Part shown: one piece after another, positions 9,138-63,539 of the stretch
Position numbering within the stretch: position 1 is the stretch's first letter
Layout: each line of letters starts with the position of its first letter
Source of the DNA: a bacterium
Lineage (GTDB): Bacteria > Patescibacteriota > Patescibacteriia > JACPHY01
Length of the DNA stretch: 64,000 bases
Assembly: GCA_030647005.1 (NCBI GenBank)
Contig: JAUSKG010000034.1
Span: forward strand, 4,050-68,049
Direction of reading: 5' to 3'
The notes under the pieces: generated by a model
Told to the model about the DNA's origin: nothing
Database searches by the model: none
Seen by the model: only the letters and a program-made list of their open reading frames with translations
Program-made: the position numbers and the translations under genes

Positions 9138-11429
9138 TTATCGTCGTGGGGGACGCGGGCCGCTCCTGCGGGGGCCGCCACCGGGACCGTGGCGTGGCGG
9201 GCCGCTGTGGCCGCCGGGACGCGGACCACCGCGATCGAATCCGCCAACGGGACGCTCGGGTGCCGGTGGGAAGGTGAACTCCTCGCCGGCGCGCACGGCC
9301 TCCACGATCGAGAGGTTCACGCGGCCCATGTCGTCAATCTCCTTCACCTTCACGGGAACAATGTCGCCGACTTTCACGATATCCTCCACCTTGTTCACGC
9401 GGTACGGCGCGAGCTCGGAGATGTGCACCATGCCGTCGCGACCGGGGAGCACCTCGACGAATGCGCCGAAATCGAGAATCCGGACGACTGGCCCGTGGAA
9501 GATCTCGCCGGCCTCCACCTCACGGGTGAGGTCGCGAATCCACTTCTTCGCGCGCTCCATGCCATCCGCCGTCACCGCGGTGATGAAGATTTGGCCGGAC
9601 TGCTCGATATCAATCTCGCAGCCGGTCTTGTCGATGATCGCGTTGATAACCTTCCCACCTGGGCCAATGACCTCACGGATCTTCTCGGGGTTGATCTGGA
9701 TGGTCTCGACGCGCGGCGCGTACTGCGAGAGCTCTGCACGCGGCGCGGCAATGACCTCCGCCATGCTGTCGAGCACCTGGAATCGCGCTTCGCGTGCCTG
9801 GTCAATCGCCGCGTCACAAATCTCAAGCGCGAGGCCTTTCGTCTTGGTGTCCATCTGTACAGCGGTGATGCCGGCTCGCGTTCCCGCGATCTTGAAGTCC
9901 ATGCCGCCCTTGCCGTCCTCGAGGTCCTGGAGATCGGTGAGAACCTTCCAACGGCCGGTGTCATCGGATGCGAGGCCCATGGCGATGCCGGCGACGGGTG
10001 CCGTGATCGGCACGCCCGCATCCATGAGCGCGAGCGTTGAACCGCACGTGGAGCCCATGGAACTCGATCCGTTCGAGGACATGACCTCAGAGACAACACG
10101 GATGGTGTACGGGAACGACTCCTTCGACGGGATGACCGGCTCGAGCGCACGCTCGGCGAGCGCACCGTGCCCGATGTCGCGCCGACCCGGGCCGCGCATC
10201 GGCCGCGCCTCTCCCACCGAGAACGGCGGGAAGTTGTAGTGGTGCATGTAGCGCTTCTTCATGTCGTACTCCATCGTGTCGAGGATCTGCTCCATGCCAG
10301 GCGAGCCGAGTGTGACGGTCGAAAGCACGTGGGTCTGCCCGCGCTGGAAGAGCCCCGACCCGTGCGTGCGCGGGAGCAGCGCGACCTCCGAGTGGAGCGG
10401 TCGAATTTCGTTGAGCTTGCGGCCGTCAATGCGGTAGCCCTCGTCGAGAATGAGTCCCACGATAACCCGCTCAATGATCGGCTTGACGAGGCGACGGCAC
10501 TGCGGGAGGAGATCCTCGGCGACACCGCGCTCCACGAGATGCGCGTCGAGCTCATCAATGAGGTTCTTCACGAGCGCATTGCGATCTTGCTTGGTCTCCG
10601 CAATACCTGCCTTGAGCACCGTGCGAGCGCGCGCGGTGACGAACGTCTCCGTGACCGCCGCAGCCGCATCGAGGTCCGCCGCACCCGCAGCCGGCACCGG
10701 CAGTACCTTCTCCTTGCCGGCCTCCTCTTGAATCTTCCGCACGAGTGCAACGACGGGGCCAAGGTGCTTCGCGCCAAAACGGATGGCCTCCTTCATGATC
10801 GCCTCCGGAACCTCATTCGCGCCGGCCTCCACCATGATCACCTGCTCTGCAGTTCCGGCGATGACGAGGTCGAGGACGCTCTTGTCGCGCGCCGCGTACG
10901 TGGGGTTGATGACCCACTCCTGCCGCGTCACATCATCGTCCGATGCAATGCGTCCGATGCGAATCCCGCCGATGGGGCCATCCCACGGAATGTCGGAAAT
11001 CGCGAGCGCGATGGATGCCGCGGTGATACCGAGGACATCGGAATCGTTCTCCGCGTCCCAGGAGAGCGTCGAGATGACGACTTGAACATCGTTGCGAATC
11101 CCCTCCGGGAAGAGCGGTCGGATACAGCGATCAATGAGCCGTCCGGCGAGGATCGCCTCGTCCGTCGGCCTCCCCTCACGCTTAATGAAGCGCGATCCCT
11201 TGATTTTCCCCGCCGCGTAGAGCTTCTCCTCAAAGTCCACCATGAGCGGGAAGAAATCAATCCCCTCGCGCGTAGACGGCGAGAGCACCGCAGTCGCGAG
11301 GACAACGGTGTCACCGTAGCGCACGAGGCAGGCACCGTTTGCCTGTCCGGCGAGTTTCCCGAGCTCGACGGTGAGCGTTCGCCCACCCCATGGGAGCTCG
11401 TACGAACGAATCTGGTCAGCCATATACAT
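9138..11429 (-). CDS. pnp: polynucleotide phosphorylase / polyadenylase with Gly-Pro-Arg-rich C-terminal tail
   Basis: Two RNase PH domains, KH and S1 domains are recognisable (KWIRDLTREVEAGEIFHGPVVRILDFGAFVEV). Start taken at MYMADQ. C-terminus is GGFDRGGPRPGGHSGPPRHGPGGGPRRSGPRPPRR. Confidence 0.95.
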   Translation of the reverse strand: MYMADQIRSYELPWGGRTLTVELGKLAGQANGACLVRYGDTVVLATAVLSPSTREGIDFFPLMVDFEEKLYAAGKIKGSRFIKREGRPTDEAILAGRLIDRCIRPLFPEGIRNDVQVVISTLSWDAENDSDVLGITAASIALAISDIPWDGPIGGIRIGRIASDDDVTRQEWVINPTYAARDKSVLDLVIAGTAEQVIMVEAGANEVPEAIMKEAIRFGAKHLGPVVALVRKIQEEAGKEKVLPVPAAGAADLDAAAAVTETFVTARARTVLKAGIAETKQDRNALVKNLIDELDAHLVERGVAEDLLPQCRRLVKPIIERVIVGLILDEGYRIDGRKLNEIRPLHSEVALLPRTHGSGLFQRGQTHVLSTVTLGSPGMEQILDTMEYDMKKRYMHHYNFPPFSVGEARPMRGPGRRDIGHGALAERALEPVIPSKESFPYTIRVVSEVMSSNGSSSMGSTCGSTLALMDAGVPITAPVAGIAMGLASDDTGRWKVLTDLQDLEDGKGGMDFKIAGTRAGITAVQMDTKTKGLALEICDAAIDQAREARFQVLDSMAEVIAAPRAELSQYAPRVETIQINPEKIREVIGPGGKVINAIIDKTGCEIDIEQSGQIFITAVTADGMERAKKWIRDLTREVEAGEIFHGPVVRILDFGAFVEVLPGRDGMVHISELAPYRVNKVEDIVKVGDIVPVKVKEIDDMGRVNLSIVEAVRAGEEFTFPPAPERPVGGFDRGGPRPGGHSGPPRHGPGGGPRRSGPRPPRR

Positions 11430-11533
11430 GGGAGTTGAGCGCGCAATGCCCCTCAACTCATAAATGGGCTGACCGATAGACCCGAACACCAGAGGGTGCT
11501 CTCCGTCTAGCGGTCAGCCATTGATTACAATAC

Positions 11534-30734: not shown

Positions 30735-30757
30735 ACAGCTCGCACCTGGTATCGGTA

Positions 30758-30804
30758 TGACCGGGATTGCCGCGTCGCTCGCGGACTCGCTCCTCGCAAT
30801 GACA
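30758..30804. repeat. solo right arm of the MITE-like element (copy D)
   Basis: ATGACCGGGATTGCCGCGTCGCTCGCGGACTCGCTCCTCGCAATGAC. Confidence 0.7.
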
Positions 30805-30821
30805 GGGGGGGGGTGATCAAC

Positions 30822-31391: not shown

Positions 31392-31405
31392 ATGAGATTT
31401 CTCCA

Positions 31406-31428
31406 CTCGCGGACTCGGTCGAAATGAC
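31406..31428. repeat. solo terminus of the TCATTTCGAG-subfamily palindromic element
   Basis: CTCGCGGACTCGGTCGAAATGAC. Confidence 0.45.
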
Positions 31429-31441
31429 GTTCTAGGCATCA

Positions 31442-32911
31442 TCACAGCGTCTGCTGAATCTTCTGCGCGGCGAGCTGGAGCGCGCGGTTGATTTCAATGG
31501 TATCCGAATACGCATCGCGGACGAGCTGCACGAACGCCTGCTCCGCACCCTCCGCGTTCTTTCCATGGTACCACGTCCGCGCGGTGAGGAGCTGGTTTGC
31601 GAACACCTTGAGGTCAACGTCCTGCTGCTGCTCGCCCACGAGCGATCGCAGTGCGGTGGGACGCTTGGCCTGCTCGAGGAACCGACGCGTCACCTGCGGC
31701 TGCGTCGTGATGTAGGTGAGGAAGTCCCACGTCTCGTTCGGGGCACTCGTGCGCTCGGAGACCGCCTGGAGCCAGAAATCCGCGTAGGTAATTGCCGCAC
31801 CCTGTCCACCCGGCACGACATCACTCCCGATAACGCTCCCGGTCTGCGGGTCTACGGCGGCGGCAATGTGTGGCACCGCACTCACCGAGAGATTCAACTG
31901 CGGTGCGCGGCTGCGGATGATCGGACGGTGGTAGCTGTAGCCAAAGAAGTACGCCACCTTCCCCTGGAGGAACGCCTCAAGCGCGTCGGGCTGGTCATCG
32001 TTCCACGAGTAGACGAGCTTGTTCGGGTTGGCGAAATCCGCGTAGTACGCGAGCGCGTCTGCCGCCGGCAGCGACGTGCGTCCCGTGATGCCCGCCGGTA
32101 GGAGGTGGAACGACGGCACGCCGCGCGCGATCATCTGCGTCCCGTTCTGCATCATGAGGAGCGAGAGGATATCGAACGACCGCGGGACGTTCCCCATCGT
32201 CCCGAGCGCGACGCCGGACTGGAGGATCGCGCCATCCGCAGCGACGCGCGTGAGACGCGGCACCTGCTGCTGGAGTTCTGCCCAGGTCTTTGCAGGCACC
32301 GGAATACCCCCCGCGTTCAAGAGGTCACGGTTCGCGTAGAGCACGAGCGTATCCACGTAGAGTGGCAGACCGTAGACGGCATCTCCCCCCTCGCGCGGGA
32401 GCACGACATCCGACACGACGACGTCCAGGAAGAGGTCGCGGAGCGTCTGCGGGTTGGGCGTGGTTGTCGCGCGGAGCTCGCCCACCTGCTCCTTGCGCAC
32501 TGTACCCGTGAGCGTGACAAACGGCATGGTGACGACGGACGGCGCGGGGAGGAGCTTCGACTGGTACCGCCGCGTCCACGTCGCGGGAATCGAGATGATG
32601 TCCGGTCCGGCGAAGTCGCCCTCGGAAAGCGCGTCGAGGAGTGCGGTCTCATACTCATCGAGCCGGAGCTTCCGGTAGGTGATCTGCACATGCGGGTGAA
32701 TCTGCCGGTACGCGTCAATGAGCGGGCGCACGTCATCGCTCGTCTCATTGACCCCCCACCAGACAAGATTGACCGGCCGAAGCCGCGCTGCGACCTCCTG
32801 CGGAATCGCGTCCCGCACGCACCCGGCGCCAAGGAACACTACGGACACGGCGATGAGCGCAATCGCACGGAGCCGTGACCAGCTGCCTCTTTGTTCTTGT
32901 CTGTGTTGCAT
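31442..32911 (-). CDS. extracellular solute-binding protein (ABC-transporter SBP family-1-like), probable lipoprotein
   Basis: Start MQHRQEQRGSWSRLRAIALIAVSVVFLGAGC (lipobox). ~490 aa with periplasmic-binding-protein-like composition. The track ORF extends 16 codons into the upstream repeat. Confidence 0.55.
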   Translation of the reverse strand: MQHRQEQRGSWSRLRAIALIAVSVVFLGAGCVRDAIPQEVAARLRPVNLVWWGVNETSDDVRPLIDAYRQIHPHVQITYRKLRLDEYETALLDALSEGDFAGPDIISIPATWTRRYQSKLLPAPSVVTMPFVTLTGTVRKEQVGELRATTTPNPQTLRDLFLDVVVSDVVLPREGGDAVYGLPLYVDTLVLYANRDLLNAGGIPVPAKTWAELQQQVPRLTRVAADGAILQSGVALGTMGNVPRSFDILSLLMMQNGTQMIARGVPSFHLLPAGITGRTSLPAADALAYYADFANPNKLVYSWNDDQPDALEAFLQGKVAYFFGYSYHRPIIRSRAPQLNLSVSAVPHIAAAVDPQTGSVIGSDVVPGGQGAAITYADFWLQAVSERTSAPNETWDFLTYITTQPQVTRRFLEQAKRPTALRSLVGEQQQDVDLKVFANQLLTARTWYHGKNAEGAEQAFVQLVRDAYSDTIEINRALQLAAQKIQQTL

Positions 32912-32920
32912 ACTAAGTGT

Positions 32921-33036
32921 GTCATTGCGAGGAGTCCGCGACGTGGCAATCCCGGTCATCGGCGCACCAATCCGACAACAACAGTATACGCATCCTTCCG
33001 GTGATGACCGGGATTGCTTCGTGGACTCGCAATGAC
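32921..33036. repeat. MITE-like palindromic element copy E (variant core)
   Basis: GTCATTGCGAGGAGTCCGCGACGTGGCAATCCCGGTCAT-CGGCGCACCAATCCGACAACAACAG...-ATGACCGGGATTGCTTCGTGGACTCGCAATGAC. Its core resembles copy G. Confidence 0.85.
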
Positions 33037-39790: not shown

Positions 39791-40069
39791 GGCATTGCGA
39801 GGGAGTCCACGATTCTCTGTCATTGCGAGGAGTCCGCGACGTGGCAATTCCGGTCATACCAGCACAAAGGTGAAAGCCGGGTGCACTGCATGACCGGGAT
39901 TGCTTCGATCGGGGACTCCTCGCAATGACAGCGATGGAGTGCCATGTTCCTTTCATTGCGAGGAACGAGTCCGCGAGTGACGCGGCAATCCCGGCCATGC
40001 CGTGTACAAGGTGAAAGCCGGGTGCACTGCATGACCGGGATTTCCACGTCGCGGACTCCTCGCAATGAC
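39791..40069. repeat. tandem cluster of MITE-like palindromic elements: partial arm (39791..39817) plus two full copies (39819..39929, 39953..40069)
   Basis: Both full copies have GTCATTGCGAGG...CTCGCAATGAC termini and the core AAGGTGAAAGCCGGGTGCACTGC. They are separated by 23 nt of unique sequence. Confidence 0.85.
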
Positions 40070-40074
40070 AGCGC

Positions 40075-40545: not shown

Positions 40546-40682
40546 GCGGGCGGGTATAAAACCCGCCCCTACGCCGTTACTTCGGAGGGGAGGAGTTCAT
40601 TCCATCGTCGCGTTATGCGTCTCCGTAGGGGAGGGGTTTACCCCCTCCCATCCGGGCTCCCCCTGAAGCTGGCGCGGGAGCG
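40546..40682 (-). repeat. composite repeat: GCGGGTATAAAACCCGC hairpin + GGGAGGGGGTAAACCCCTCCC hairpin + 26-nt repeat, reverse orientation; overlaps the 3' end of the giant ORF
   Basis: The same ordered pair of hairpins recurs at 60682..60784. The 26-nt element lies at 40661..40682. Confidence 0.5.
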
Positions 40683-43600
40683 TCAAAGAACGCGCGATGT
40701 CGGCCCATGCGGATGGGATGATGGCGGTGATGCCGACTGATTCCGGTGCGTCTGCGACCGCTACGACATCCGTCTCGCGGGCATCGGAGGTTTTGGGGGA
40801 TGACGGCTCCACGATGATCTGCACGGTGTCCGCCGCTGATGCGCCACCGTTGTCCACGACTTCGAGGATGACGGACGTCGTTCCAATCGGCGCGGCGTAC
40901 TCCAGCTGCGCGCCGGAGCCGATGTACTCCCGACCGACGCGCCAGCGCAAGCGCGCGATGGACCCGTCTGCATCACGCGAGCGCGATCCATCGAGGGTGA
41001 CGGTGACCACTCCGTCGCCATCGTCATCGCGCACGGTTTGATCTTCGCCCGCGTGTGCAACCGGCATCGTATTGAGCCCAACCATGCTGCGCCAGGCACT
41101 CAGCACCGCGCGGTTGTTCAGCTCATCGAGCTCCGCGATGGCATCGTTCGGGTCAACGGTGAGCTCGAGGATCGCCGCGCCTTCCGGTGGGGTGGTCGCG
41201 TAGACGCCGAGCGGCCGCGGGAGGCCGACGGTGTCCGGAATCGCGGACGTCATCTGGAACCGCCAGTCCGGTTCGAGGGCATCCTGCGTGCGCAGGTAGT
41301 GCTGCCCAAGCGGCAGCCCGCTCCCACCCCGCCACTGGAGCCGCCAGGTGAACGCGGGACTGATCACACCACCGCGATTCGTGAGGATGATGCGGAGCGC
41401 GCCGCTCTCGTCCACGCTGAGGTCGAGGATGGCAAGATCCACCGGACGATCCGGCTCGAACACCGCGAGCGTCGTGCGGGCCTGTGCCTCCCGCCCGTCG
41501 GCATCGCGTACCTGCACGGTGGCGGCAATGAGCCCGCCGGCATCGAACCGACGCTGGATGGTCGGCGAAGCACCAACGACGCCGTCTGCAAAACGCCAGG
41601 AGACCGTGTACGGCTTGCGACCGCCGGTGATCGCCGCGTGGTAGGTTGCGGAGAGCGGCGCGGGACCGGATGCCGGATCAACCGTCGCCGTCACCGCGAG
41701 CGGCGCGACGCGCACCACCGGCGTGCGCTCCGCGACTGGCGCGATATCCGGTGTGATGACTCCTGCCTCCTTCGGGCTGCTCGGTTCCTCAGGCACATCC
41801 GTCACCAGCTCGGGCTCGTCAACGATGGTCGGCTCGCGTGGAGGCACTGCGGGTTCCGGTATGCGACCCTCGGCCTCCTCGGGAATGGTGATCGTGACGT
41901 CATTGTCGGACTCGTTCACCTCAACAATTGCGTTTGGCCCATCCACGGTGATGAGGAGCTCCACCGCCCCGCTCGGCACGGTGCGCAGGAATTGCGGGAA
42001 GGTCTGCCCCGCGCCGCTCCCACGGTGCGGGAAGAACGTCGCGCCGAGGTCACCTGCGAAGGTAATCGTCTGTGGATCTCCGGGCGCGAACGCTTGCGCG
42101 GGCGCATCGTGCCAGAACCGCACCGCACCTACGGACAGCCCAAGCGTGTCGGTCCAGGTGAACCAGTACGACAACGGTACGCCGATGTCACCGATTGCCG
42201 CGCCATCGTTCACGACCGTGACGGTGACGGCGCGGGCGTCGTCCGCATACGTCGCGGACACGGCGCGAAGGTTGGGGAGCGGCGGCTGCTCCGCCTGCAC
42301 ACTCGCCACCGGAACCGGGAGCGTCGCGACGTTGTTGAGCTCATGCTGCTCGGCAATGCGACCATCACCGTCCGCGACGATGCGCAGGTGTGTGGCGCCC
42401 GCTGGCGGGTGCGCGAGGAATACCGCGAGATTCTCCGTCCGATGTCGCGTGAAGATGAGGAGGAACCGCTCGCGGTAGGTGACGGAGAGTAGGCCGGTCC
42501 CGAGCGACTTCGCATCGCCTGCGGCGAGCGCGTGGAGGGTGAGTGTACGCACCGCACCAAGAGGAACCACACGGTCATCCACCCACGCGAGCTGGAGCGT
42601 GGACGACGGTGCCTCCGCGTCCCCGTCATTGCGCACGACGAACGCGAGCGTACCATCTTCCTCCCACGCTGCGGAGGACAGCAGGAGGTCCGGGAGTGCG
42701 GCCGCACCTACCTGCGTCGCGCCAGTGAGCGCACCGAGTATCGTGCCGACGGTATCCCGCGCGCGCGATGCGATGCGCGTCGCCGTCTCCGCGGGCAGAC
42801 GCGCAATCGTGAGGGTCACCTGTTTGCAGTTGTTCGACTCATCGGACTCCGCGATCTCCTTATTGACATCTATGCACACCTCGAACGCGTGGTTGCCGGA
42901 CGTGGCCTCCCAAGCGTCGGCCCACGTGATGGTTCCTTCCGCCGCCTTCGCGAGCGTCGGGAGTGCCTCCGTGGACGGGAAGGCATCCGGAACACCGTCA
43001 TTGTTCAAATCCACAACCAACCACGCAGTCGTCGCCGCAACATCCGCCGATCCGCTATTCCGGATCGTCGCCGTAAACGACACCGCCTGCCCGGTCATCG
43101 GCACGGCAGGTGACGCAACGACACGCACCATCACGAGGTCCGGCCCGATGGTGACCGGTTCTGGTTCGGGTTCCGGCTCGGGTTCTGGTTCCGGTTCCGG
43201 CTCTGGTGCCACGACCGGGCGCGTGAGCACGCGGGCATTATTCTGCTCGTTGGCTTCTGTCACCGCGTCCTTCGGATCCACCACGATGCGCAACTGCATC
43301 GCGTGCACGGGAGGCGCGGCGATGAAGTTTGCGTAGTATCCGGTCCAACCAATGGTCCCCAGGTCTTTCGCCGCGCCGCGGGAGAGCCCCATGAAGTCCC
43401 GCGTCTCTTCCGCAAGAACGGTGCCATCACGATCGAGCCATGCAATCGTCGCACTCGTACCCACCGTGCGCACGGCACCGTCATTACGCACGACGAGTCG
43501 TAGTCCCGCATCCGTCAGTGCGGCATCGGCAATGGCGAGATCGGCGACCCCGAGCGGCCATCGGTCCGACGTAAGACGATTGTTGTCTTCGCGCTCCTCT

Positions 43601-46600
43601 GCGATCCGGTTGTCCGGGTCCACGATGAGCTCGATACCTGCGGCACCTGTTGGCGGATCGAGCACGTACTCACCAAACGGCCGCGGTGTCCCCGTCCGAT
43701 CACCGACGTCGCTCATCATGGCGTAGAAGCTCCCCGCGCGCTGCGCATCGTGCGGCTGGCGGTACGGTGGTACAGCAATGCGCGCACCGGAGGCGTCCAA
43801 CCACGCGAGCTCCCACGTGTACGCCGGCGCGGGAACTGTTCCCTCCACTTGCATGTTCACGATGAGTCGCTCGTCGTCGGTCACGCTGATGAGATTCGCC
43901 TTGAGATCCGACAGCGGCGCACCGGCAAAGGGAACATCGAAGGTATTGTTCGATTCGTCCGCTTCCGTCAGCTTGCCCGCCGGATCAACCGTAAACCGAA
44001 TCTGCGTTGCACCCGCGGGCGGGTCCTTGAAGAACTGCACCTCGGGGCCGTAGCCGGAGTCCTTGTACGCGAAGAGGAGCTGGTAGCGGTGGAGAAACTG
44101 CTTCTGGAGACCGTCACCGCGACCGATGTACGGCGCGCCAAGGAGCGTACCGGAAGCATCGGCCCACTGCATAGACCAGAAGAACACGGGTGATGCAATC
44201 TCGCCGACGTTGCGGACATCGAGTCCATAGATATCACCGTCGGCATTCGTGAAGAGCTTGGGGACACCGGTGATCGTGAGATCCGGCAGCGCGCTCCGGT
44301 CCGGACGATCGAAGGTCACGCGGTTGTTCTCCTCGTTCTTCTCCGCGATTGCATGATCCGGATCCATCGTCACGCGGAGCGTGCGCGCCGCATCCGGCGG
44401 CGATGCGAGCAGCTCGCCCGCGCGACCCACACCGCGTTCGATGATGATCGAACGGCCACTGCGCGAGGAGAGCTGCGGCCCGTCCACGCGGACCGACGCG
44501 CCCACGACCGTGCCTTCCGCATCGAGCCACGCGAACTCCCACACGAATGCCTGGACGTCCTGCTTCCCCTTGTTCCAGAGCGTCGCCGAGAAGCTGTCCA
44601 TGCCCAGCGCAGGTTCGCCGAACTCGAGATCGGGCTGCTGCACGATGACGAGTGCCGCGCGCGCGGTGTTATTCTGCTCATCGTGCTCGCGGAGCACATG
44701 CTCAGGATCAGCGGTGATCTCCAGCCCGCTCGCGTTCGCTGGCGGATCGGCGAGGAGGCCCGCCAAGGGTGTCTGCTCCTGTGCGAGACCGGTCGCGGTC
44801 CACAGAGGTGACGTGAGCGTGGTGGTTGCTGCGGTGAACGTCCGCGATGCACCAGATGCGAGCGCGGCGGTGTCCAACCAGTACCGACCGTACGAACCGG
44901 CAAAGTGCACTGCGATGCGGATGCGTCCCTCACGATCTCCGGCGGGCGCGTCGCCGACATTCGTCACCGTGAACGTCGCGCCGTCGCGCGTGACGGCAAC
45001 GTCGCGCACAACGAGGTCTGCGAGTTTCCGTCGCGCAGCAACGTCCGCGCTGTTGTTCTCCTCCGAGGACTCCGCGATGGCATTGCCCGCATCAATCGTC
45101 ACGCGGAGTGCCGCAGCCCCCGTCGGCGACAACGCGAGCGAGCGCTCATCGTACCCGTACCCGTCGTAGCGCAAGGTGCGAACTTCGGTGGCCCCGGGGC
45201 TGAGGAAGCCCGTCCCGCGGGTGACGGTCGGCGTGCCGAGTACCCCGCCGGCGGCATCCACCCACTGGAGCGTGAGCGTGGCGGGCGTGGCGCGCGCTGC
45301 ACCACGATTTGCGATGGTGATACGGAACGTGTCGCCGCTCGCCTCGATGCCGGTTGCTGCGGCAACGAGCTGGAGGTCCGGCAGCGGGAGCGGCAGGGTG
45401 ACGATGTTGTGCTCCTCATCCCGCTCGGGAATTGCATCCGTCACATCTGCCGTGATGCGGAGTGCGGTTGCGGTGCTCGGTCGCTGCTGGAGGAACTGCG
45501 CGAGCGATTGGCTCGATGGTTGGGGACGATGATTGGCGTAGGCGAAGGAGAGCATCGTATCGGCCGCGCTCATGCGCGCGGATGTTCCAGGTGCAATGGG
45601 GAGCATCGTGAGGACGCGCTCGCCGCCGGGAATGGGAGTGCCGCTGCCGTCCAGCCAGAGGAGGCCGACGGAGACATCACCGCCCGTGATGCCCGGCCCA
45701 TCGTTCACCACCGCGAACGTGAGCGATGCATCCACGAGGTGCGCGTCCGCAATGCGGAGATCGGCGCGCGGACGTTCGAGGAGCACCGCGTTGTTCCCGT
45801 CGTTCGTCTCGCGAATCACATGGTCCGGATCGAGCGTGAGGTGGAGGTGCGTCGCATCGCGCGGTGGCATCCGGAGCACCTCGGTGAGGGCGATCGTCGA
45901 GACCTGCGTGCGACCCCACCACCCGCCCCGGAACTCGTACGACACCTGCACATCACGCGCATGGAGTGTGATGCGTCCACCCGCGACGATCGGCGCGAGG
46001 TCCACGAAGTAGCGCTGGCCCGTCGCCTGCCGATCTGCCGTGCGCCACACGATGTCCGCGCGCACGCGCGCGCCATCCGTTGCGCCTGCGCCGTCATTCT
46101 GCACGGTGAAGACGAGATCGTCCGCGGTGAGCGATGCACCCACGATGGTGAGGTCTGCGAGTGCGGATGGTTGCGGCGGGGGCGGCGGGAGCGCGGGTGC
46201 GTCGAGCACCGCGATGTTGTTCAACTCATCGGACTCGTCGAGCGTCCCTGCGCTGTCGAGTGCGACCCGAAGGAATGCCGCGCCATCCGGTCGGTCGGTG
46301 AGGAACGCGGCGAGCGACTGTGTCTCCATGCTCCGGAGCAGACCGCTCCGGTAGGATACCGTGGACGTTGCCGAAGAGATGCCGGTCGTCGCACCGGCAT
46401 CGAGTGCGGGGTACGCGATGGAGCGTGGGGAACCGAGCGGTTGGCGTTCCCCGTCCAACCACTGGAATGCGACGTGGAATGCACTCCCGATGCGCGTCGT
46501 GCCGATGTTGGAGACCCGTGCCGCAAACGCACCGGCATCACCGCCGACAAAACCCGCTTCCGTGATGGCGAGGTCGGGGAGCGGGAGGTGCACGACCGCC

Positions 46601-48618
46601 GCGTTGTCGTCTCGTGTCTCCTCGAGGAGTACCGCACCCGCATCGAGCGCGATGCGAAACTGCGTCGCGCCCGCCGGACGGTTGACGAGGTACGTCGCGA
46701 GCGGTTCATCGTGTGCAGTCGAGAACATGCGACCGGTGGTGTAGGACGCGACGGCGTGCGCGGAGCGTAGGGTGACCCGCTCGAACGGCGCAACGTGTTC
46801 CACCGCAATGGAGCGCGGCGCACCGAGGCGCCCACCCGCAGCGTCGAGCCACTGGAGCTCGATGGCAAACGGCGTCATGATGACGGTCGCGCTGGTGTTG
46901 TGGTACGAAAAGGTGAGCGCGCCATCGGCAATGGTGGGTGCGATGATCTGGAGATTGGGGAGTGCAAACGGGATCGCAAGCGTATTGTTCTCCTCGTTCG
47001 CCTCGGCAATCGCACCTCCTTCGTCAAGGACCATCTGGAGCAGGGTTGCATCCGCCGGACGATCGGCGAGAAACGCGCTCAGCAACAACGGCTCCGCGCG
47101 CTTGAACATGCGCCCACGCGTCCGCTCGACGGTCGTTGTTGCCGCGTCCACAAACGTGGAGGAGCCGGCAGCACTGCCGACGCGCACCATCGCAACGGCA
47201 TCCTGCACCGCACCCTCCGCGTTCACCCATTGGAACAGTACTTGGTACGCATCAGCAATCGTACCGCCGACGTTGCGGTACACCATCATCGCACGTTCCG
47301 GCGTGATGTCGTAGGACTCAGCAATGAGATCGGGCTGTGGTTCGGGTTCCGGCTCAGACACATCCTCTGGTGGTGGCGCAATCGGCTCGCCATCCTCAGG
47401 AGGGAGGAGCACGACGTCATCGGGCGTTTCCAAAAGAGGTGGCGACACCACAACCGGCACGTCTTCAGGCGCGGCAACGATCTCCGGCCCGCAGCTGCAA
47501 CAGAACAACCCATCGCTGCCATTGCGCGTCGTGATGGTGTGCAGGGTGCCACACGCCTGCGCACACTGATCGTAGGAGGTAAACTCGTCCGGTTCGCACG
47601 CAACGACGCACGCGTAGCACGTCGCCGCGGTCGTCGCGTCACGAACGCAACGCTCGTTCGCGTCACCGCACATTCCACCACAAGTATCATTGGTGAATCC
47701 CGGGCACGATGGTGCTTGTGGCACTTCCGATGGCGACACCGGAACGGGAGTGACGGTCGGCGTACCGCTTGCCGGACGCAATCGCGCAGCGACCCGTCCA
47801 AAAAAACCACGCGGCGGATCGGGAGCCGGCACGGCAACACCGACGAATGCCGGGGCTGCTGCTTCCACTCCCGGGGCCGCAACCGCATCGGGGACGGATG
47901 GTGCCGGAGCAAAAGCATCCTGTTCTGGCACGCCCGAGACAACAGGGATCGTGCGTTCGAGCACTCGCTCGGGAGCGGGTGTCACCACCGGCACCGCATC
48001 AACTCCACCACTCGATACGCGCGCAGGCGGAGCGAACGGAGCTGGCGTGGAGACGGGGACGGGAACCGGCGCGGGTGGCGCGGTCGCGGTGGGTGCGGAT
48101 TCCGGTTGCGCAAGAGCCGGTGTTGGCACGGATGCGAGACGATCGAGAATCTGTTCGGCGATGACCGAGCGATCCGCATCGCCGCCCTGTTCCGGTGCGG
48201 TGAGCTGCGCCGCGATGGACGTAAACACCCGGGTCTGCTGCGCGAGCTGCGTCGTCACCGCCGCATCAATCGCATCGGCGGTGCCATCCACTCCCGATAC
48301 ATCGGCCTGCTCCTGCGCGAGCTGCACATATCGCTGCGCGATCACCTGCACGACGAGCACACGCTCCGGTGCGCGCTCCGCGATCACCTGCGCCTCCTCC
48401 ACCTTCTCCTGTGCGTAGCGGAGCGCACGCGCGGCCTTCTTCTCCGGATTGATCGTCAGCGCGAGCGCGACGCGCTCGAACGTGAGATCGAAGAAATAAA
48501 AACGGCTCGCCGGCGTGAGGCCGGCAGCCGCGTGTGCTGCGCTCGGGACGAGCAATACGAACGCTGCGATGAACGTCAGCACTGCCTGTCGCGCGCGCAC
48601 GACGGTGAGCTTATCCAT
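40597..48618 (-). CDS. giant surface protein (~2670 aa): DUF5667-like N-terminus, Pro-rich and Cys-rich segments, about 14 CARDB-like repeats, (PE)n linker, PKD-like domains
   Basis: Start MDKLTVVRARQAVLTFIAAFVLLVPSAAHAA (signal/TM) then TINPEKKAARALRYAQEKVEEAQ (DUF5667-like). The Cys cluster is CPGFTNDTCGGMCGDANERC...CYACVVACEPDE. ~110-aa repeats each carry VxNxGxxxA...W.D..G patterns. A PEPEPEPEPEPEPEP linker follows. The PKD-like domain includes TATVDPASGPAPLSATYHAAITGGRKPYTVSWRFADG. The last ~30 codons read through dispersed repeats, so the true stop may be earlier. Confidence 0.75.
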   Translation of the reverse strand: MDKLTVVRARQAVLTFIAAFVLLVPSAAHAAAGLTPASRFYFFDLTFERVALALTINPEKKAARALRYAQEKVEEAQVIAERAPERVLVVQVIAQRYVQLAQEQADVSGVDGTADAIDAAVTTQLAQQTRVFTSIAAQLTAPEQGGDADRSVIAEQILDRLASVPTPALAQPESAPTATAPPAPVPVPVSTPAPFAPPARVSSGGVDAVPVVTPAPERVLERTIPVVSGVPEQDAFAPAPSVPDAVAAPGVEAAAPAFVGVAVPAPDPPRGFFGRVAARLRPASGTPTVTPVPVSPSEVPQAPSCPGFTNDTCGGMCGDANERCVRDATTAATCYACVVACEPDEFTSYDQCAQACGTLHTITTRNGSDGLFCCSCGPEIVAAPEDVPVVVSPPLLETPDDVVLLPPEDGEPIAPPPEDVSEPEPEPQPDLIAESYDITPERAMMVYRNVGGTIADAYQVLFQWVNAEGAVQDAVAMVRVGSAAGSSTFVDAATTTVERTRGRMFKRAEPLLLSAFLADRPADATLLQMVLDEGGAIAEANEENNTLAIPFALPNLQIIAPTIADGALTFSYHNTSATVIMTPFAIELQWLDAAGGRLGAPRSIAVEHVAPFERVTLRSAHAVASYTTGRMFSTAHDEPLATYLVNRPAGATQFRIALDAGAVLLEETRDDNAAVVHLPLPDLAITEAGFVGGDAGAFAARVSNIGTTRIGSAFHVAFQWLDGERQPLGSPRSIAYPALDAGATTGISSATSTVSYRSGLLRSMETQSLAAFLTDRPDGAAFLRVALDSAGTLDESDELNNIAVLDAPALPPPPPQPSALADLTIVGASLTADDLVFTVQNDGAGATDGARVRADIVWRTADRQATGQRYFVDLAPIVAGGRITLHARDVQVSYEFRGGWWGRTQVSTIALTEVLRMPPRDATHLHLTLDPDHVIRETNDGNNAVLLERPRADLRIADAHLVDASLTFAVVNDGPGITGGDVSVGLLWLDGSGTPIPGGERVLTMLPIAPGTSARMSAADTMLSFAYANHRPQPSSQSLAQFLQQRPSTATALRITADVTDAIPERDEEHNIVTLPLPLPDLQLVAAATGIEASGDTFRITIANRGAARATPATLTLQWVDAAGGVLGTPTVTRGTGFLSPGATEVRTLRYDGYGYDERSLALSPTGAAALRVTIDAGNAIAESSEENNSADVAARRKLADLVVRDVAVTRDGATFTVTNVGDAPAGDREGRIRIAVHFAGSYGRYWLDTAALASGASRTFTAATTTLTSPLWTATGLAQEQTPLAGLLADPPANASGLEITADPEHVLREHDEQNNTARAALVIVQQPDLEFGEPALGMDSFSATLWNKGKQDVQAFVWEFAWLDAEGTVVGASVRVDGPQLSSRSGRSIIIERGVGRAGELLASPPDAARTLRVTMDPDHAIAEKNEENNRVTFDRPDRSALPDLTITGVPKLFTNADGDIYGLDVRNVGEIASPVFFWSMQWADASGTLLGAPYIGRGDGLQKQFLHRYQLLFAYKDSGYGPEVQFFKDPPAGATQIRFTVDPAGKLTEADESNNTFDVPFAGAPLSDLKANLISVTDDERLIVNMQVEGTVPAPAYTWELAWLDASGARIAVPPYRQPHDAQRAGSFYAMMSDVGDRTGTPRPFGEYVLDPPTGAAGIELIVDPDNRIAEEREDNNRLTSDRWPLGVADLAIADAALTDAGLRLVVRNDGAVRTVGTSATIAWLDRDGTVLAEETRDFMGLSRGAAKDLGTIGWTGYYANFIAAPPVHAMQLRIVVDPKDAVTEANEQNNARVLTRPVVAPEPEPEPEPEPEPEPEPVTIGPDLVMVRVVASPAVPMTGQAVSFTATIRNSGSADVAATTAWLVVDLNNDGVPDAFPSTEALPTLAKAAEGTITWADAWEATSGNHAFEVCIDVNKEIAESDESNNCKQVTLTIARLPAETATRIASRARDTVGTILGALTGATQVGAAALPDLLLSSAAWEEDGTLAFVVRNDGDAEAPSSTLQLAWVDDRVVPLGAVRTLTLHALAAGDAKSLGTGLLSVTYRERFLLIFTRHRTENLAVFLAHPPAGATHLRIVADGDGRIAEQHELNNVATLPVPVASVQAEQPPLPNLRAVSATYADDARAVTVTVVNDGAAIGDIGVPLSYWFTWTDTLGLSVGAVRFWHDAPAQAFAPGDPQTITFAGDLGATFFPHRGSGAGQTFPQFLRTVPSGAVELLITVDGPNAIVEVNESDNDVTITIPEEAEGRIPEPAVPPREPTIVDEPELVTDVPEEPSSPKEAGVITPDIAPVAERTPVVRVAPLAVTATVDPASGPAPLSATYHAAITGGRKPYTVSWRFADGVVGASPTIQRRFDAGGLIAATVQVRDADGREAQARTTLAVFEPDRPVDLAILDLSVDESGALRIILTNRGGVISPAFTWRLQWRGGSGLPLGQHYLRTQDALEPDWRFQMTSAIPDTVGLPRPLGVYATTPPEGAAILELTVDPNDAIAELDELNNRAVLSAWRSMVGLNTMPVAHAGEDQTVRDDDGDGVVTVTLDGSRSRDADGSIARLRWRVGREYIGSGAQLEYAAPIGTTSVILEVVDNGGASAADTVQIIVEPSSPKTSDARETDVVAVADAPESVGITAIIPSAWADIARSLTLPRQLQGEPGWEGVNPSPTETHNATME

Positions 48619-48637
48619 AGCGTATTTTTCATCTCCA

Positions 48638-49468
48638 TCATAGCACACGCGAGAGAAGAGCGGCGATAATCGTGAGCATGCCGATGACGATGACGAACAC
48701 GCCGAGGTTCACGCGACGGGTGAACGCCATGAACGCGTGGATCGTCGCAATCCCGAACGCAAACGAGGTGAGGAGGCCCCAGAGCAGCGTCGCATCGAAC
48801 GGTGCGCCGTTGCGGAGCAGCACGAGGTTCCCCGCAAACACGATGGGGATGGACATGAGGAACGACAGGCGGAGCGCCTGCTGCCCATCGAACTTCCGGA
48901 GGAGGAGCGCCATGATCGTGAGGCCGGAGCGCGAGAGCCCGGGGAGCACCGCAAATCCCTGCATGACCCCGAGGAGCACCGTGTCGAACAGCGTGATCCG
49001 TTGACGCGGCACCGCCGCGGCCTGCCGCTTGCGCGCGGACAGGAGCATGGCGCCCGTGGCGATGAGGAACACCCCGATCGCACCCACGATCACCCGAATC
49101 GTCGCCGCGCCGCTCGTGGAGCCAATCACCTGGATCGCGCGGCCAAACCCCTCGAGGAGCACGAGCCCGAGCGCACCGGAGATGAGCGTTGTCCCGATGA
49201 GGAACCAGAGCAGGTCTCGAGACGCGCCTCGCTCCCGACGCGTAATGACACGCCCGAGCTCCCGCAGGAGCTCGCCGACATCCCGCCGGAAGTACACGAT
49301 GGCCGCAACCATCGTCCCAAAGTGGAGCATGAGTGCCACGTCAATGGACTCCCGCACATCCGTGTGGCCAAAGAGCACCGTGCGCGCGAGCACGATCATC
49401 CCGTCCGAGGAGATCGTGATCCACTCCGTCATTCCCTGAATGGCACCGAGCACGAGTGCTTCGAGCAT
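48638..49468 (-). CDS. uppP: undecaprenyl-diphosphate phosphatase (BacA/UppP)
   Basis: GAIQGMTEWITISSDGM and PGLSRSG motifs are present. 276 aa with 8 TM helices. Confidence 0.9.
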   Translation of the reverse strand: MLEALVLGAIQGMTEWITISSDGMIVLARTVLFGHTDVRESIDVALMLHFGTMVAAIVYFRRDVGELLRELGRVITRRERGASRDLLWFLIGTTLISGALGLVLLEGFGRAIQVIGSTSGAATIRVIVGAIGVFLIATGAMLLSARKRQAAAVPRQRITLFDTVLLGVMQGFAVLPGLSRSGLTIMALLLRKFDGQQALRLSFLMSIPIVFAGNLVLLRNGAPFDATLLWGLLTSFAFGIATIHAFMAFTRRVNLGVFVIVIGMLTIIAALLSRVL

Positions 49469-49523
49469 AGGAATTCATCTGTAAGATTCCCTCGCGTTGT
49501 TTTACACGCTGCATCTCCCTCTC

Positions 49524-55392: not shown

Positions 55393-55475
55393 CTATCGGT
55401 GGCGCCACTCCACTCGCAACACGAAACGCCCGCGATCGCACCATGCGACTCGCGGGCGTTTTCCTTTCTGCAAAA

Positions 55476-55563
55476 ACGGAGGGGGAGGGATTCGAACCCT
55501 CGATACCCTTGCGGGTATACAGGTTTTCGAGACCTGCTCCTTCAACCTCTCGGACACCCCTCC
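55476..55563 (-). tRNA. tRNA-Ser (anticodon CGA), type II with long variable arm
   Basis: Reverse complement folds as acceptor GGAGGGG/CCCCTCC, D-arm, anticodon loop CTCGAAA, long variable arm CCTGTATACCCGCAAGGGTATCGAG, T-arm GAGGGTTCGAATCCCTC, discriminator G. Confidence 0.85.
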
Positions 55564-55688
55564 ATCCTTGGCGCTATCGCGCCAGCTTCGGTCACAGGAC
55601 AAGCATAGCGTAGCGCATTGCGTCGCGGGAATCAACTCATGGAGAGACCGTTGAAAAAGTCCGAACATGCACCATCTGCCTGTCCGAT

Positions 55689-55764
55689 GTAGCGGAAACC
55701 TTTAGGTTTCCACGTACAGCGCGAGACGGATGGAGGTCTGAAGACCTCCGCTACACCATTTTTT
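55689..55764. repeat. structured repeat copy 2 (shorter variant, ends in T-run)
   Basis: GTAGCGGAAACC-TTTA-GGTTTCC...GGAGGTC-TGAA-GACCTCC-GCTACACCATTTTTT. Confidence 0.5.
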
Positions 55765-55772
55765 CAACGGTC

Positions 55773-57133
55773 TCACGGAGAGAATTCACGCGTAGGCACA
55801 AGCGGGAGCGTGCCGAGGGCGAGGAGGGTCCAGAACTGGATGGCGAGGTCGTTCTTGAATGTGGGGATGTCCACGAGGCCGAAGATGAGCAGTGCACACA
55901 TCGCTGCGATGATGGACGCGGAGCGCCACGTTGCGAACGCGCGGGTGAAGAACACGATGAGGAGCACGAGGAAGATGAGGAGCCCGAGGAGCCCGAGCTC
56001 TGACCACACGGCGAGGAGGAGATTATGCGGATACACGAACGTCTCGACATCCTGCTTCTCCTTGTACTGCTGGATGGCGATGGGGTAGCCAGCGAGTCCG
56101 GCACCGCGGACGGGATGGTCGGCAAGGAGCCCCCACATCTCGCGGTACTGCGAGAGCCGCACGCTGCCAGACCACTGCTGGAACGTGAGCTTCTGCCACA
56201 CCGTACTCCCGTCCCGCGGCCGCTCGGGCTGGAACGGCAGCCATGCGGTGATGAGGAGGCACGCCGCAACCCACCCAACGACAATCGTCACCGCAATCCC
56301 GCGCGCATGTCGCGCGACGAACGACTTCCACACTTTGAACGCGACGAGCGCGATGAAGCCCGCGACGACCGCAACCATTGCCCCCGCGCCTCTCGTGAAG
56401 AACACCGCCGCAATCGCCGCGATGCCGACGAGGAACAGGAAGATGAGCGCGAGCACGGAGTGCACGATGCTCTGTTCCCCCACCTCTTCTAGAGGGGGGG
56501 TGTTCGCCGCCGCGTAATCGCCACCATCCCGAACGCGAGCGGCACGAGCGGCGCGAGGTACAACCCCACCGCATTCGGGTATCCGAACACGCTCGTCACG
56601 CGCCGCGTCGCGACATCGAACCACGGGAACGGAATCCCGTAGCCGCTCCAGTGCTGCCAGATCGCCACTCCCGCAACGCCCGCTGCGCCAACGAGGATCG
56701 GCAATACGATGGTGCGGAGCGGACTGAAAATGTTGAGTGCCCGAATCACAAAATACGCCAACACCGGCTCCACGATGTACGCCTTCCAGATACCCCACGC
56801 CGCCGCCCCCGCATCCGACCACATCGCCGCGAGCAACCCCGCGACAACCCAGAGCACCGCGAGCACGACCATGCGATCCGCAAACGGCGACGCCGCCGCT
56901 ATAGTCCTCCCCCTCATCTTGAGGGGGAGCGAGAGGGGGTGTCCCCCCCGCCCACACCCCAGCACCACCACCGCCAATACCAACACCATTCCTTCCAACA
57001 GCGTCATCGGAATCCCAAGCACCTCGAACCGCACGAGGTACGTCGGCAGCAACGCGAGGAGTACCCCGAGTGCAAGACGGGGGCGATACCAGGCAACAGC
57101 GGCGTAGGGGAGGAGCGCGAGGGCGTAGGGCAT
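55773..57133 (-). pseudogene. O-antigen ligase / Wzy_C-family membrane protein split by a -1 frameshift in a G7 homopolymer (possible phase-variable gene or sequencing error)
   Basis: The N-terminal half (frame A, 56489..57133) ends ...GMVAITRRRTPPL*. The C-terminal half (frame B) has the Wzy_C/WaaL signature RLSQYREMWGLLADHPVRGAGLAGYPI...YPHNLLLAVWSELGLLGLL. The two frames meet at the tract GGGGGGG 56495..56501. Adding one G would fuse them into a single ~450-aa ORF. Start ATG is 1 nt after the upstream flippase stop. Confidence 0.6.
56907..56942. repeat. 36-nt dispersed repeat copy 3 (inside the N-terminal part of the O-antigen ligase-like gene, encoding HPLSLPLKMRG)
   Basis: Identical, bar one G, to copy 1 at 8927..8963. 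Confidence 0.55.
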
Positions 57134-57134
57134 A

Positions 57135-58673
57135 CTACGACGCGCGGAACGCGACGACCATCCGGCGCGTCCATGGAATAAGGAGTACGGCCGCACCGTA
57201 CGCGATCACCCCGAGTGCTACGCGCGGGATGATGTGCCACGCGGGAACCGCGAGGACGGCGAGCGCCATGAGACCGGAGGCGAGGAGCGCGGCGACGGGG
57301 ATGCGGAGGTCCAGGCGCACTGCGGACGTACGGCGCACGACGGCGAACGTCGCAACGGCGATAGCGATCTCGGACGCGACGGTCATCCACGCAGCGCCCC
57401 AGTACGAGTAGCGCGGGATGAAGACGAAGTAGCCGATGAGCGTGACCGCGGCCACTGCAGCGTACCCCCAGAGCATCGCACGCTGCCGCTCGAGCGCGAC
57501 GATCGCGTAGCCGAACGGCTGGCCGAGGAAGATGCCCAGGAGCGCGAGCGACAGCACGCCGAGAATCGGACCGGACACCGCGAAGTCGCTCCCCGCCACG
57601 AACGCCATGATCGGCGTGCCCAGTGCCAGGGCACCCGCGGCGAGCGGGAATCCGAGGAACGCGAGCCCGTCGAACACGCGCTGGAGGCGATGCCGGAACG
57701 CCGCGCGATCACCCGTTGCCCACGCCGCCGCGAGGAGCGGGAGCACGAGCCCCATGACGAGGTGCGGGAACTGCGTGACGACATCGAGGAGGCGGTACGG
57801 CGCGGCGTAGATGCCCACCTCCTCCTCCGGCCGCACGAACGAGAGGATGACGGTGTCCGCGCGGAGGTAGACGAGGTTGAAGATGATGGAGAGCGCGACG
57901 GGCCAGCTCTTCGTCAGGATGCGCTTCCAGAGCGGGAAGTCGAACGCGAGCCGGACGCGCACGATGCGCTGCGCGGCGATGAACGTGATGGCGAACATCG
58001 CAACGTTGCCGATGACCGTCGCCCACACCATCGGGAGGATACCCATCCCCCGCCACGCGGCGAACGCGACGCCCGCCGTGAGCAGCGCGCGACCCGCGAC
58101 ATCCGCGATAGCCGGCCAGACCATCCGCTGCGCCACCTGGAACGGTGCCAAGAGAATCTGGTGGAGCACGATGCCGAGGAACGAGAACGTCGCCGCCGCG
58201 ATGCCGACGCGCACCACGGGATCGTACACGGGAATGACGAAAGCCACCGCCGCAGCCGCCGCGAACACCACAACCGCCACGGTGAGGCGCATGGTGAAGA
58301 TGTTGGAGAGCAGGACCGCTCGTTCGTCATTTCGACCGAGCGAATCCGATGCGGTCGCGGAGAAACCTCGTTCCGCCGCGGAGATCTCTCGACTCGAATA
58401 CTCGCTCGAGATGACGAAAGAAGAGGAATCACTCGCTCGAGATGACGAGGAGGAGAGCCGTCCCAACTCGCTCGGCGCGAGGACATTCAACCCCAAATCC
58501 ACCGCAACGCCGAAGAGCTGGAGATATGCCATGATCGTGGCGTACTTCCCGTACCCCGCGAGGCCGAGCGCGCGCGTGATAATCGCGATCGCCGCTACCC
58601 CAAACGCAATCCCCGCGAGCTTCCCCGCGAGCTGGATGCCGGACTGCGAAATGATCCGCCGTGTCATGGTCAT
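57135..58673 (-). CDS. Wzx-like oligosaccharide flippase / polysaccharide biosynthesis protein (MOP superfamily) with Ser-rich in-frame insertion
   Basis: 512 aa with ~14 TM helices and flippase-like composition. An inserted ~45-aa Ser-rich segment SSSSSRASDSSSFVISSEYSSREISAAERGFSATASDSLGRNDER is encoded by a TCATTTCGAG-subfamily palindromic element. Confidence 0.6.
   Translation of the reverse strand: MTMTRRIISQSGIQLAGKLAGIAFGVAAIAIITRALGLAGYGKYATIMAYLQLFGVAVDLGLNVLAPSELGRLSSSSSRASDSSSFVISSEYSSREISAAERGFSATASDSLGRNDERAVLLSNIFTMRLTVAVVVFAAAAAVAFVIPVYDPVVRVGIAAATFSFLGIVLHQILLAPFQVAQRMVWPAIADVAGRALLTAGVAFAAWRGMGILPMVWATVIGNVAMFAITFIAAQRIVRVRLAFDFPLWKRILTKSWPVALSIIFNLVYLRADTVILSFVRPEEEVGIYAAPYRLLDVVTQFPHLVMGLVLPLLAAAWATGDRAAFRHRLQRVFDGLAFLGFPLAAGALALGTPIMAFVAGSDFAVSGPILGVLSLALLGIFLGQPFGYAIVALERQRAMLWGYAAVAAVTLIGYFVFIPRYSYWGAAWMTVASEIAIAVATFAVVRRTSAVRLDLRIPVAALLASGLMALAVLAVPAWHIIPRVALGVIAYGAAVLLIPWTRRMVVAFRAS
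58314..58408. repeat. TCATTTCGAG-subfamily palindromic element inserted in frame in the flippase gene
   Basis: GTCATTTCGACCGAGCGAATCCG...GAGAAACCTC...GAGATCTCTC...CGCTCGAGATGACGAAAG. Same architecture as the intergenic copy 49524..49675. A second partial right terminus lies at 58418..58441. Confidence 0.65.
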
Positions 58674-60597: not shown

Positions 60598-60681
60598 GAA
60601 GCATCGCGACGAAAAACCACCGGAAACTCCATCCGGTGGTTTTTCTGATGCTCGACCCATGACGGCGCGTCGGTGCGGAAC

Positions 60682-60784
60682 GGGAGGGGGTAAACCCCTC
60701 CCCTACGGGGTACGCGCAACGCAAGGAGGATGAGATGCCCAATCGCCACGGGAATCGCGTAGGGGCGGGTTTTATACCCGCCCG
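60682..60784 (+). repeat. composite hairpin repeat copy (GGGAGGGGGTAAACCCCTCCCCTACGG ... GCGTAGGGGCGGGTTTTATACCCGCCCG)
   Basis: Same two hairpins in the same order as the reverse-oriented copy at 40546..40650. Confidence 0.5.
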
Positions 60785-63386: not shown

Positions 63387-63520
63387 GTCATTGCGAACCG
63401 AGTCCGCGAGGTGTGGCAATCCCGGTCATCAGCAGACCCATCCGACAACAACGGCACGCGCATTCGTCCTGTGATGACCGGGATTGCCGCGTCGCTCGCG
63501 GACTCACTCCTCGCAATGAC
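63387..63520. repeat. MITE-like palindromic element copy G (variant core, as copy E)
   Basis: GTCATTGCGAACCGAGTCCGCGAGGTGTGGCAATCCCGGTCAT-CAGCAGACCCATCCGACAACAACGG...-ATGACCGGGATTGCCGCGTCGCTCGCGGACTCACTCCTCGCAATGAC. Confidence 0.85.
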
Positions 63521-63539
63521 AGAAGCAAGAGGATTCGCT

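Follow-up and report, generated by a model that had tools for sequence, protein, structure and literature searches.

Within a stretch of 64,000 nucleotides (nt) from an uncultivated member of the Patescibacteriota (GenBank assembly GCA_030647005.1, contig JAUSKG010000034.1; the whole stretch is called the window in the following, and positions are counted from its first letter), a membrane-protein gene of the Wzy_C, or O-antigen ligase, family is read on the minus strand in two pieces. The gene is translationally coupled to that of a Wzx/MurJ-like flippase, with a gap of 1 nt between the TAG of the latter (57137..57135) and its own ATG at 57133, as the first-pass annotation of this DNA had already stated. 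The upstream piece (frame A, 56489..57133) runs from the ATG (57133..57131) through 214 codons to a TAG at 56491..56489, and encodes the N-terminal half of the protein with approximately six predicted transmembrane helices; the downstream piece (frame B, 55773..56501), which ends with a TGA at 55775..55773, encodes the C-terminal half with the Wzy_C domain. The two frames meet at a run of seven C on the coding strand (C7, that is G7 on the plus strand), which is the most parsimonious site of a 1-nt deficit, and whose in-frame lengths would be C5, C8 or C11. The first-pass annotation was right about the two frames and about their meeting at a G7 run, and 1 nt off in placing the latter at 56495..56501, the run being at 56494..56500.

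The frame break and its position at the C7 run are directly observed. With the nearest orthologue, a protein of 475 amino acids (aa; P0001), as the tblastn query against the window, residues 7-231 match 57121..56495 in frame -1 with 68% identity, and residues 233-463 are found in frame -3 at 56501..55806; since the two matches lie in different frames, involve consecutive residues and meet at the run, the switch of frame is pinned to it. Furthermore, the distance between conserved anchors is 113 nt in the window (2 modulo 3), as opposed to 126 and 108 nt (0 modulo 3) in two intact orthologues. The continuous polytopic polypeptide of ~400-470 aa that is expected of the family is not found in the gene as assembled, and is obtained after the addition of a single C/G at the run, which yields one open reading frame (ORF) of 453 aa, in keeping with the ~450 aa predicted earlier for a one-G repair. 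In this merged protein the peptide spanning the junction is ..RRRTPPPLEEVGEQ.., and either C8 or CCCCCACC in the C-rich tract restores the series T-P-P-P-L-E-E.

The family assignment made at first pass is borne out by the match of the frame-B half to PF04932 (Wzy_C, 'O-antigen ligase family'), which spans the profile from one end to the other (3-149 of 149) with 61.2 bits against a cut-off of 31.7 (1.3e-16); every homologue listed carries the same domain. The merged protein has 798 homologues at E <= 1e-5, the two top matches being 67% and 63% identical to it over 98% of the length. Among the best 120 of the 798, in which the named organisms are Candidatus Uhrbacteria and other Patescibacteria, 117 are single ORFs of 396-562 aa, with a coverage of the merged protein of at least 91%, and the remaining three are shorter or partial entries (coverage 65-82%). 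These figures exclude the possibility, raised together with the first-pass annotation, that orthologues naturally encode two separate proteins at this point, and a natural two-gene arrangement was rejected on the same ground. As far as sequence comparison goes, this is one conserved gene, not two, predicted to encode a Wzy_C-family membrane protein of ~453 aa with ~12 helices.

The AlphaFold2 model of the merged protein, built on an 86-sequence alignment, has a mean predicted local distance difference test (pLDDT) value of 90.2 and a predicted template modelling score of 0.91. Its only weak internal segments are residues 61-80 (pLDDT 48-56) and ~210-219, both of which are rich in Arg and Lys and coincide with the two loops that, as described below, derive from a repeat. 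Both are probably cytoplasmic in the model, if helices are counted from the presumed outward-facing loops that contain R178, S322/R326 and E364/P369/H370; S322, R326, E364, P369 and H370 are the conserved residues of the frame-B half. No match to the merged protein was found in the PDB, either by sequence or by Foldseek. The protein resembles WaaL, PglL, TfpO-TfpM and Wzy in having a Wzy_C domain above threshold, ~12 helices, a Wzx-type flippase as a partner and conserved Arg, His and Glu residues in loops predicted on the outer face; it differs from them in that its equivalog scores are far below the cut-offs, with 25.4 bits against 277 for the WaaL/RfaL equivalog NF012031 (RfaL), and weak matches to TfpM and IctB. 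We infer that it transfers or polymerises a glycan linked to undecaprenyl phosphate at the outer face of the membrane. To our knowledge, Patescibacteria are generally held to be without lipopolysaccharide, so that the acceptor must differ from that of WaaL.

The break falls in a loop that is disordered and hypervariable, after helix 6 and before helix 7. A functional split gene, in which translation would stop at the TAG (56491..56489) and reinitiate at GTG 56483 or GTG 56465, with the two six-helix halves assembling in the membrane as the parts of split polytopic transporters are able to, finds support in this location, in the position of these in-frame GTG codons, 5 and 23 nt past the stop, in a GGTGGGGG stretch 11 nt before the second of them, and in the unchanged constraint on the downstream half reported below. 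However, no orthologue among the best 120 of the 798 homologues is divided at the junction, no convincing Shine-Dalgarno sequence precedes GTG 56483, and, for a recent break, a lack of change in constraint says nothing either way. All in all, a working split gene appears improbable.

The origin of the C7 run is to be sought in a dispersed, multi-copy, hairpin-forming repeat of ~38 nt, which is present in the window and gave no matches in shuffled sequences. The copy of a dispersed repeat that the first-pass annotation had placed in the gene is indeed there: the full copy, 38 nt long (ACACCCCCTCTCGCTCCCCCTCAAGATGAGGGGGAGGA; 56905..56942, minus strand), lies in frame, encodes ..HPLSLPLKMRGR.. 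in the disordered loop formed by residues 61-80 (site 1 in what follows), and folds into a hairpin of 9-10 bp with a second C-rich module before it. Directly 5' of this copy is an in-frame G7 run on the coding strand (56943..56949, minus strand), the only other G/C run of at least seven bases within a gene of the window. Two near-identical copies are intergenic: one at 8926-8963 (plus strand), whose sole difference from the genic copy is G6 in place of G5, and one at 8985-9020 (minus strand), which forms an inverted pair with the former at a distance of 44 nt. The pair (region 8916-9032) is located a short way downstream of the gene for PNPase (9138..11489, minus strand), and is probably a compound terminator. 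A variant copy, TCCCCCCTCTGGAAGAGGGGGG, is found at 25285-25330 (plus strand) within a DUF2079 gene, and a degenerate one at 6605 (plus strand). As the G5 of 56905-56942 and the G6 of the copy at 8926 exemplify, copies of the repeat differ by one base more or less in their homopolymers. Neither terminal inverted repeats nor target-site duplications are evident among the aligned copies of the ~38-nt unit. Matches to the repeat core in seven metagenome contigs (36-46% GC) were set aside as chance or convergent hairpins, their flanks being unrelated.

What the earlier annotation overlooked is that the junction itself is, as the alignment of the copies shows, a second, truncated member of the repeat family. 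The sequence at 56474..56503 (minus strand), ACACCCCCCCTCTAGAAGAGGTGGGGGAAC, is closest to the variant at 25285, and is predicted to form the hairpin ACACCCCCCCTCT-AGA-AGAGG(T)GGGGGAAC, with the TAG of frame A at its tip. In the predicted fold an arm of 10 nt on the 5' side faces one of 11 nt with a bulged T on the 3' side, and the loss of 1 nt from the C-rich arm would leave just such a short arm and bulge. As these alignments show, the C7 run is no free-standing tract: it belongs, as the C-rich arm, to a second copy of the repeat that has decayed, and this explains the presence of a long G/C run in the Wzy_C gene.

The orthologues tell a similar story. The closest one (L001) has a fuller, in-frame copy at the junction site (KTPPPTPPLEAGEGR) and another at site 1, the C7 at the position homologous to the junction run being part of the repeat; the repeat is missing from orthologues that are more distant, one of which (L002) has it at neither of the two sites. 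Both loops were, therefore, occupied, in frame, before the window lineage and L001 separated, at a synonymous divergence (dS) of ~0.8-1.0. G/C runs of at least six bases occur in the Wzy_C gene of the various orthologues only within the two repeat-derived loops: five in L001 (C7, C7, C6, G8, C7), two in the window (G7, C7), and none anywhere in the gene of L002, L007 or L008. The five runs of the L001 gene (the gene being at 710-2137 of L001, Logan SRR13727527) are jointly in frame, and this gene looks even more exposed to slippage than that of the window. In addition, two proteins from other lineages (P0008 and P0032) have repeat-like peptides in the junction loop, which makes the latter a permissive site. 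Copies of the repeat are in frame at site 1 of the Wzy_C gene and in the DUF2079 gene, and it is in the window alone that the junction copy has lost the frame.

The DUF2079 membrane-protein gene (24676-26526, minus strand; PF09852, 167 bits) remains in frame through two unrelated dispersed repeats, namely the hairpin repeat at 25285-25330, read as 'SPLFQRGDTGGW', and a TGTCATTGCGAGG...GGCAATCCCGGTCAT repeat at 25719-25769, read as 'LCHCEPSPRGVAIS...MTGIAASRTPRND', and this suggests that in-frame colonisation of membrane-protein loops by repeats is common in this genome.

There is no excess of long G/C runs in the window, where GGGGGGG has five overlapping matches against 7.0 +/- 3.2 expected from dinucleotide shuffles. 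All 120 runs of at least five bases were scanned for those at which a change of one base would join two ORFs with coding-type GC content by codon position, and the run at 56494..56500 is the only one of the 120 at which a 1-nt change joins two gene-like ORFs. No gene is broken at any of the other runs, which include fourteen G/C 6-mers and the in-frame G7 at 56943..56949, located in the same gene only 450 nt from the break. The run is, thus, unremarkable in itself, and the non-random part is its coincidence with a break of frame. Three other sites flagged by the scan were rejected for their antisense-type GC content by codon position, and the overlapping same-strand ORF pairs 26809/27285, 30822/31442 and 48638/40597 were not accepted as frameshifts, being separate genes or without family matches.

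It is against this background that the phase-variation switch proposed at first pass has to be seen. In contingency loci such as those of Neisseria (pgl/lgt), Campylobacter, Haemophilus and Helicobacter, the length of a G/C homopolymer sets the frame of a surface-polysaccharide gene, one added nucleotide turning it on, and the gene described here shares this defining feature of a frame-setting G/C tract. An evolved contingency locus, in which the tract would be kept since G7/G8 slippage switches the attachment of a surface glycan, for instance under pressure from phages or hosts, is consistent also with the differences of one base between copies of the repeat and with the situation in L001, where the homologous position has a C7, and the other loop a further four long runs, an indication that the lineage tolerates mutable tracts. 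The window run differs from known contingency tracts in being only 7 nt long, in deriving from the arm of a dispersed hairpin repeat, and in belonging to a class of runs without enrichment; seven bases are at the low end of the tracts with useful switching rates. Moreover, no other candidate locus was found in the 64 kb, the tract is a by-product of the repeat arm that is absent from orthologues without the repeat, and a literature search returned no paper pairing 'Candidate Phyla Radiation' with 'O-antigen ligase'; we know of no report of homopolymer switching in Patescibacteria. With the tract found only where a repeat occupies the loop, and identified as a decayed arm of it, the switch proposal is not supported, and selection of the tract as a switch is considered unlikely.

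A bolder version of the same idea is that a lineage-specific hairpin repeat colonises the cytoplasmic loops of membrane proteins of envelope biogenesis, and that its homopolymeric arms act as reversible ON/OFF switches for surface glycans. The double colonisation of the Wzy_C gene and the single one of the DUF2079 gene would then reflect a selfish-repeat contingency mechanism in ultra-small, episymbiotic Uhrbacteria/Patescibacteria, a reading that we regard as quite unlikely.

Constraint on the two halves of the gene bears on the age of the break. The ratio of nonsynonymous to synonymous substitution rates (dN/dS) of the downstream half is 0.24 between the window and L001 and 0.23 between the window and L002, to be compared with 0.22 between the two intact orthologues, and that of the upstream half is 0.29-0.31. 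Of the columns invariant over an alignment of 86 family members, all 32 are retained in the window gene, and 17 of these lie downstream of the break. The lack of decay downstream implies that the break is very recent, not biological, or compensated. A pseudogene, the other possibility put forward at first pass, is only weakly upheld, the C-terminal half being free of relaxed selection and complete in its family-invariant residues. If the gene is a pseudogene, it must, on these substitution patterns, be a very young one.

A compensated break could consist in recoding, by which the G7 template would still yield the full-length protein through -1 ribosomal slippage of tRNA-Pro on CCC CCC C or through slippage of RNA polymerase. 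The C-run would let the P-site tRNA-Pro re-pair one base back, giving T-P-P-P-L-E-E, and there is a hairpin at the run. This hairpin, however, includes the slippery run and does not follow it after a spacer of 5-9 nt, the local fold has no significant advantage in stability over shuffled sequence (z = -1.5), no Rfam match was found, and the frameshift is conserved in no relative, all of them being in frame. Programmed -1 frameshifting was, therefore, rejected, the break not being conserved and the structure being misplaced. C7 is short for efficient transcriptional slippage, and recoding in general is regarded as highly improbable.

A break that is not biological would be an error of consensus or assembly, in which case the gene of 453 aa would be intact in the organism, with a tract of eight bases (or CCCCCACC), and one base would have been lost in sequencing or polishing. 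The undecayed downstream half, with its dN/dS of 0.24 and its full set of invariant residues, is what such an error would leave, as is a gene that is conserved and a single ORF in relatives (117 of the best 120 among the 798 homologues). The break also sits at one of only two G/C runs of at least seven bases inside genes of the window, and at a tract that is, at the same time, the stem of a G/C-rich hairpin. Weighing against an error is the fact that no gene is broken at the other runs among the 120 of five bases or more, a pattern that argues against a noisy consensus from long reads only. As the other G7 of the gene and all G/C 6-mers are in frame, the assembly is not generally troubled by homopolymers, and a local error becomes less probable without being removed from consideration; with short reads, indels of the consensus are rare at 7-mers. 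Inverted repeats are among the documented triggers of sequence-specific errors in Illumina data, although the paper concerned deals with miscalls, not indels (PMC3141275).

The explanation that we favour, tentatively and at somewhat less than an even chance, is a recent and incidental 1-nt slippage deletion in a repeat-derived tract, resulting in an allele that is OFF or split. In the ancestor shared by the window organism and L001, a G/C-rich hairpin repeat would have entered, in frame, two protein loops that are probably cytoplasmic and tolerant of changes in sequence. In the window lineage, the copy in the loop after helix 6 would have been truncated; very recent strand slippage may then have deleted one base of the repeat-derived tract, leaving the C-rich arm 1 nt short (C7), with the effect that frame A ends at the TAG at the tip of the hairpin. 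The OFF (or split-gene) allele would be incidental and, in principle, revertible, the tract not having been selected as a switch. This explanation builds on what the comparisons show, namely the single-ORF orthologues, the repeat origin of the tract and the lack of decay downstream; that the deficit is present in the DNA of the organism is what we infer from them. The sequence cannot separate a real deletion from a consensus error, and the latter is nearly as likely.

Several points weigh against the deletion. The perfectly kept downstream half is equally predicted by an error. The gene is conserved across Patescibacteria, in a conserved envelope neighbourhood, so that losing it should come at a cost. 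Where exactly in the ~30 nt ahead of the TAG the base is missing is deduced, not read. Finally, no second assembly of the strain was found through the flippase product, the genomes of GTDB species or metagenome contigs: the flippase product is not on record, the genomes of GTDB species, when scanned with the merged protein, yielded only relatives at 28-36%, no exact match was found in metagenome contigs to a degenerate DNA pattern situated 70 nt from the junction, and the nearest relative of the merged protein is only 67% identical to it.

Whichever explanation applies, the observation is real and the phenomenon an ordinary one, namely a single-base homopolymer frame break in an otherwise perfect conserved gene. 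In this respect, the case is like young pseudogenes and the homopolymer sequencing frameshifts of metagenome-assembled genomes (MAGs), and only the repeat origin of the tract sets it apart. Should the break be real, a conserved enzyme that assembles surface glycans has only just been lost, or split, in a strain of an ultra-small, uncultivated bacterium, a change of the kind that can alter attachment to the host or susceptibility to phages; hairpin repeats that have settled harmlessly in protein loops would, in this way, introduce tracts prone to slippage into genes that look essential. In the case of an error, G/C-rich hairpin repeats within genes are spots to be checked in assemblies of Patescibacteria before a pseudogene or a switch is called.

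[quoted passage not shown] Like them, the window repeat is multi-copy and palindromic, occurs both between genes and inside ORFs, is read in frame in fold-compatible loops, and is present or absent among orthologues. Unlike them, it is ~38 nt long instead of ~100-150 bp, and has no recognised terminal inverted repeats or target-site duplications; furthermore, and at variance with RPEs, the peptide encoded varies with strand and frame, and one copy is out of frame. That the tract stems from the repeat is a pointer to broader colonisation of the loops of membrane proteins, in the manner of RPEs, within this lineage.

With regard to the genomic neighbourhood, the flippase gene (57135..58673, minus strand; Polysacc_synt) matches PF01943 with 62.8 bits and PF13440 with 54.4 bits, its HfsF/Wzx matches being below threshold. 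The order flippase, then Wzy_C is common to L002, L007 and L008. In a JGI contig and an NCBI Uhrbacteria MAG, a divergent SpoIID gene is followed by the flippase, Wzy_C and, later, BacA and a very large protein, and SpoIID, flippase, Wzy_C and BacA, in an order kept in L007 and L008, are a conserved unit of envelope biogenesis. In the window, the two-gene unit of flippase and Wzy_C is probably closed by a palindromic element of 131 nt (55644..55774), either a terminator or MITE-like, whose 5' arm overlaps the stop codon of the Wzy_C gene. The element has perfect 15-nt terminal arms (GAGACCGTTGAAAAA / TTTTTCAACGGTCTC) and two further hairpins inside, and its RNA fold reaches -63.8 kcal/mol (z = -5.98); it occurs once in the window and has no Rfam match. 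Downstream of the unit, beyond this element, lies a tRNA-Ser(CGA) gene (55476..55564, minus strand), apart from which no RNA element known to Rfam was found in 55400-57300.

The window is rich in other repeats. An abundant dispersed family, TGTCATTGCGAGGA(G/A)...GGCAATCCCGGTCAT together with its reverse complement, often occurs as inverted pairs with 84-98% identity between copies, and is found at 19776-19843, 25719-25769, 26507-26627, 30757-30805, 32920-33022, 39818-40071 and 63413-63522. The longest G/C homopolymer of the window, a G9 at 30805-30813, abuts the end of a copy of the TGTCATTGCGAGG family. A 29-nt hairpin, ACGGGAGGGGGTAAACCCCTCCCCTACGG, is 100% identical at 26476-26504 and 60680-60708, 34 kb apart, and has diverged variants at 40546 and 40627. 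The region 5690-8620 contains no ORF with the high third-position GC usual for this genome, and runs of A7-A8 occur in it several times (7180-7292); the DNA there may be non-coding or of foreign origin.

Larger repeated structures are found within, or close to, coding sequences. An ORF of 2704 codons (40597-48708, minus strand), which adjoins BacA (48638..49474), has internal repeats with a period of ~730-750 nt (families D2, D4 and D13); a large protein takes its place in the syntenic L007 and L008, with faint PKD and CARDB matches in L008. Four or five paralogous units of ~370-550 nt stand in tandem at 27980-29901 and 30310-31493, with 63-79% identity and a start-to-start spacing of 373-551 nt; they adjoin an ORF with a T4SS_pilin domain (PF18895, 39 bits), and look like an array of small pilin-like membrane proteins.

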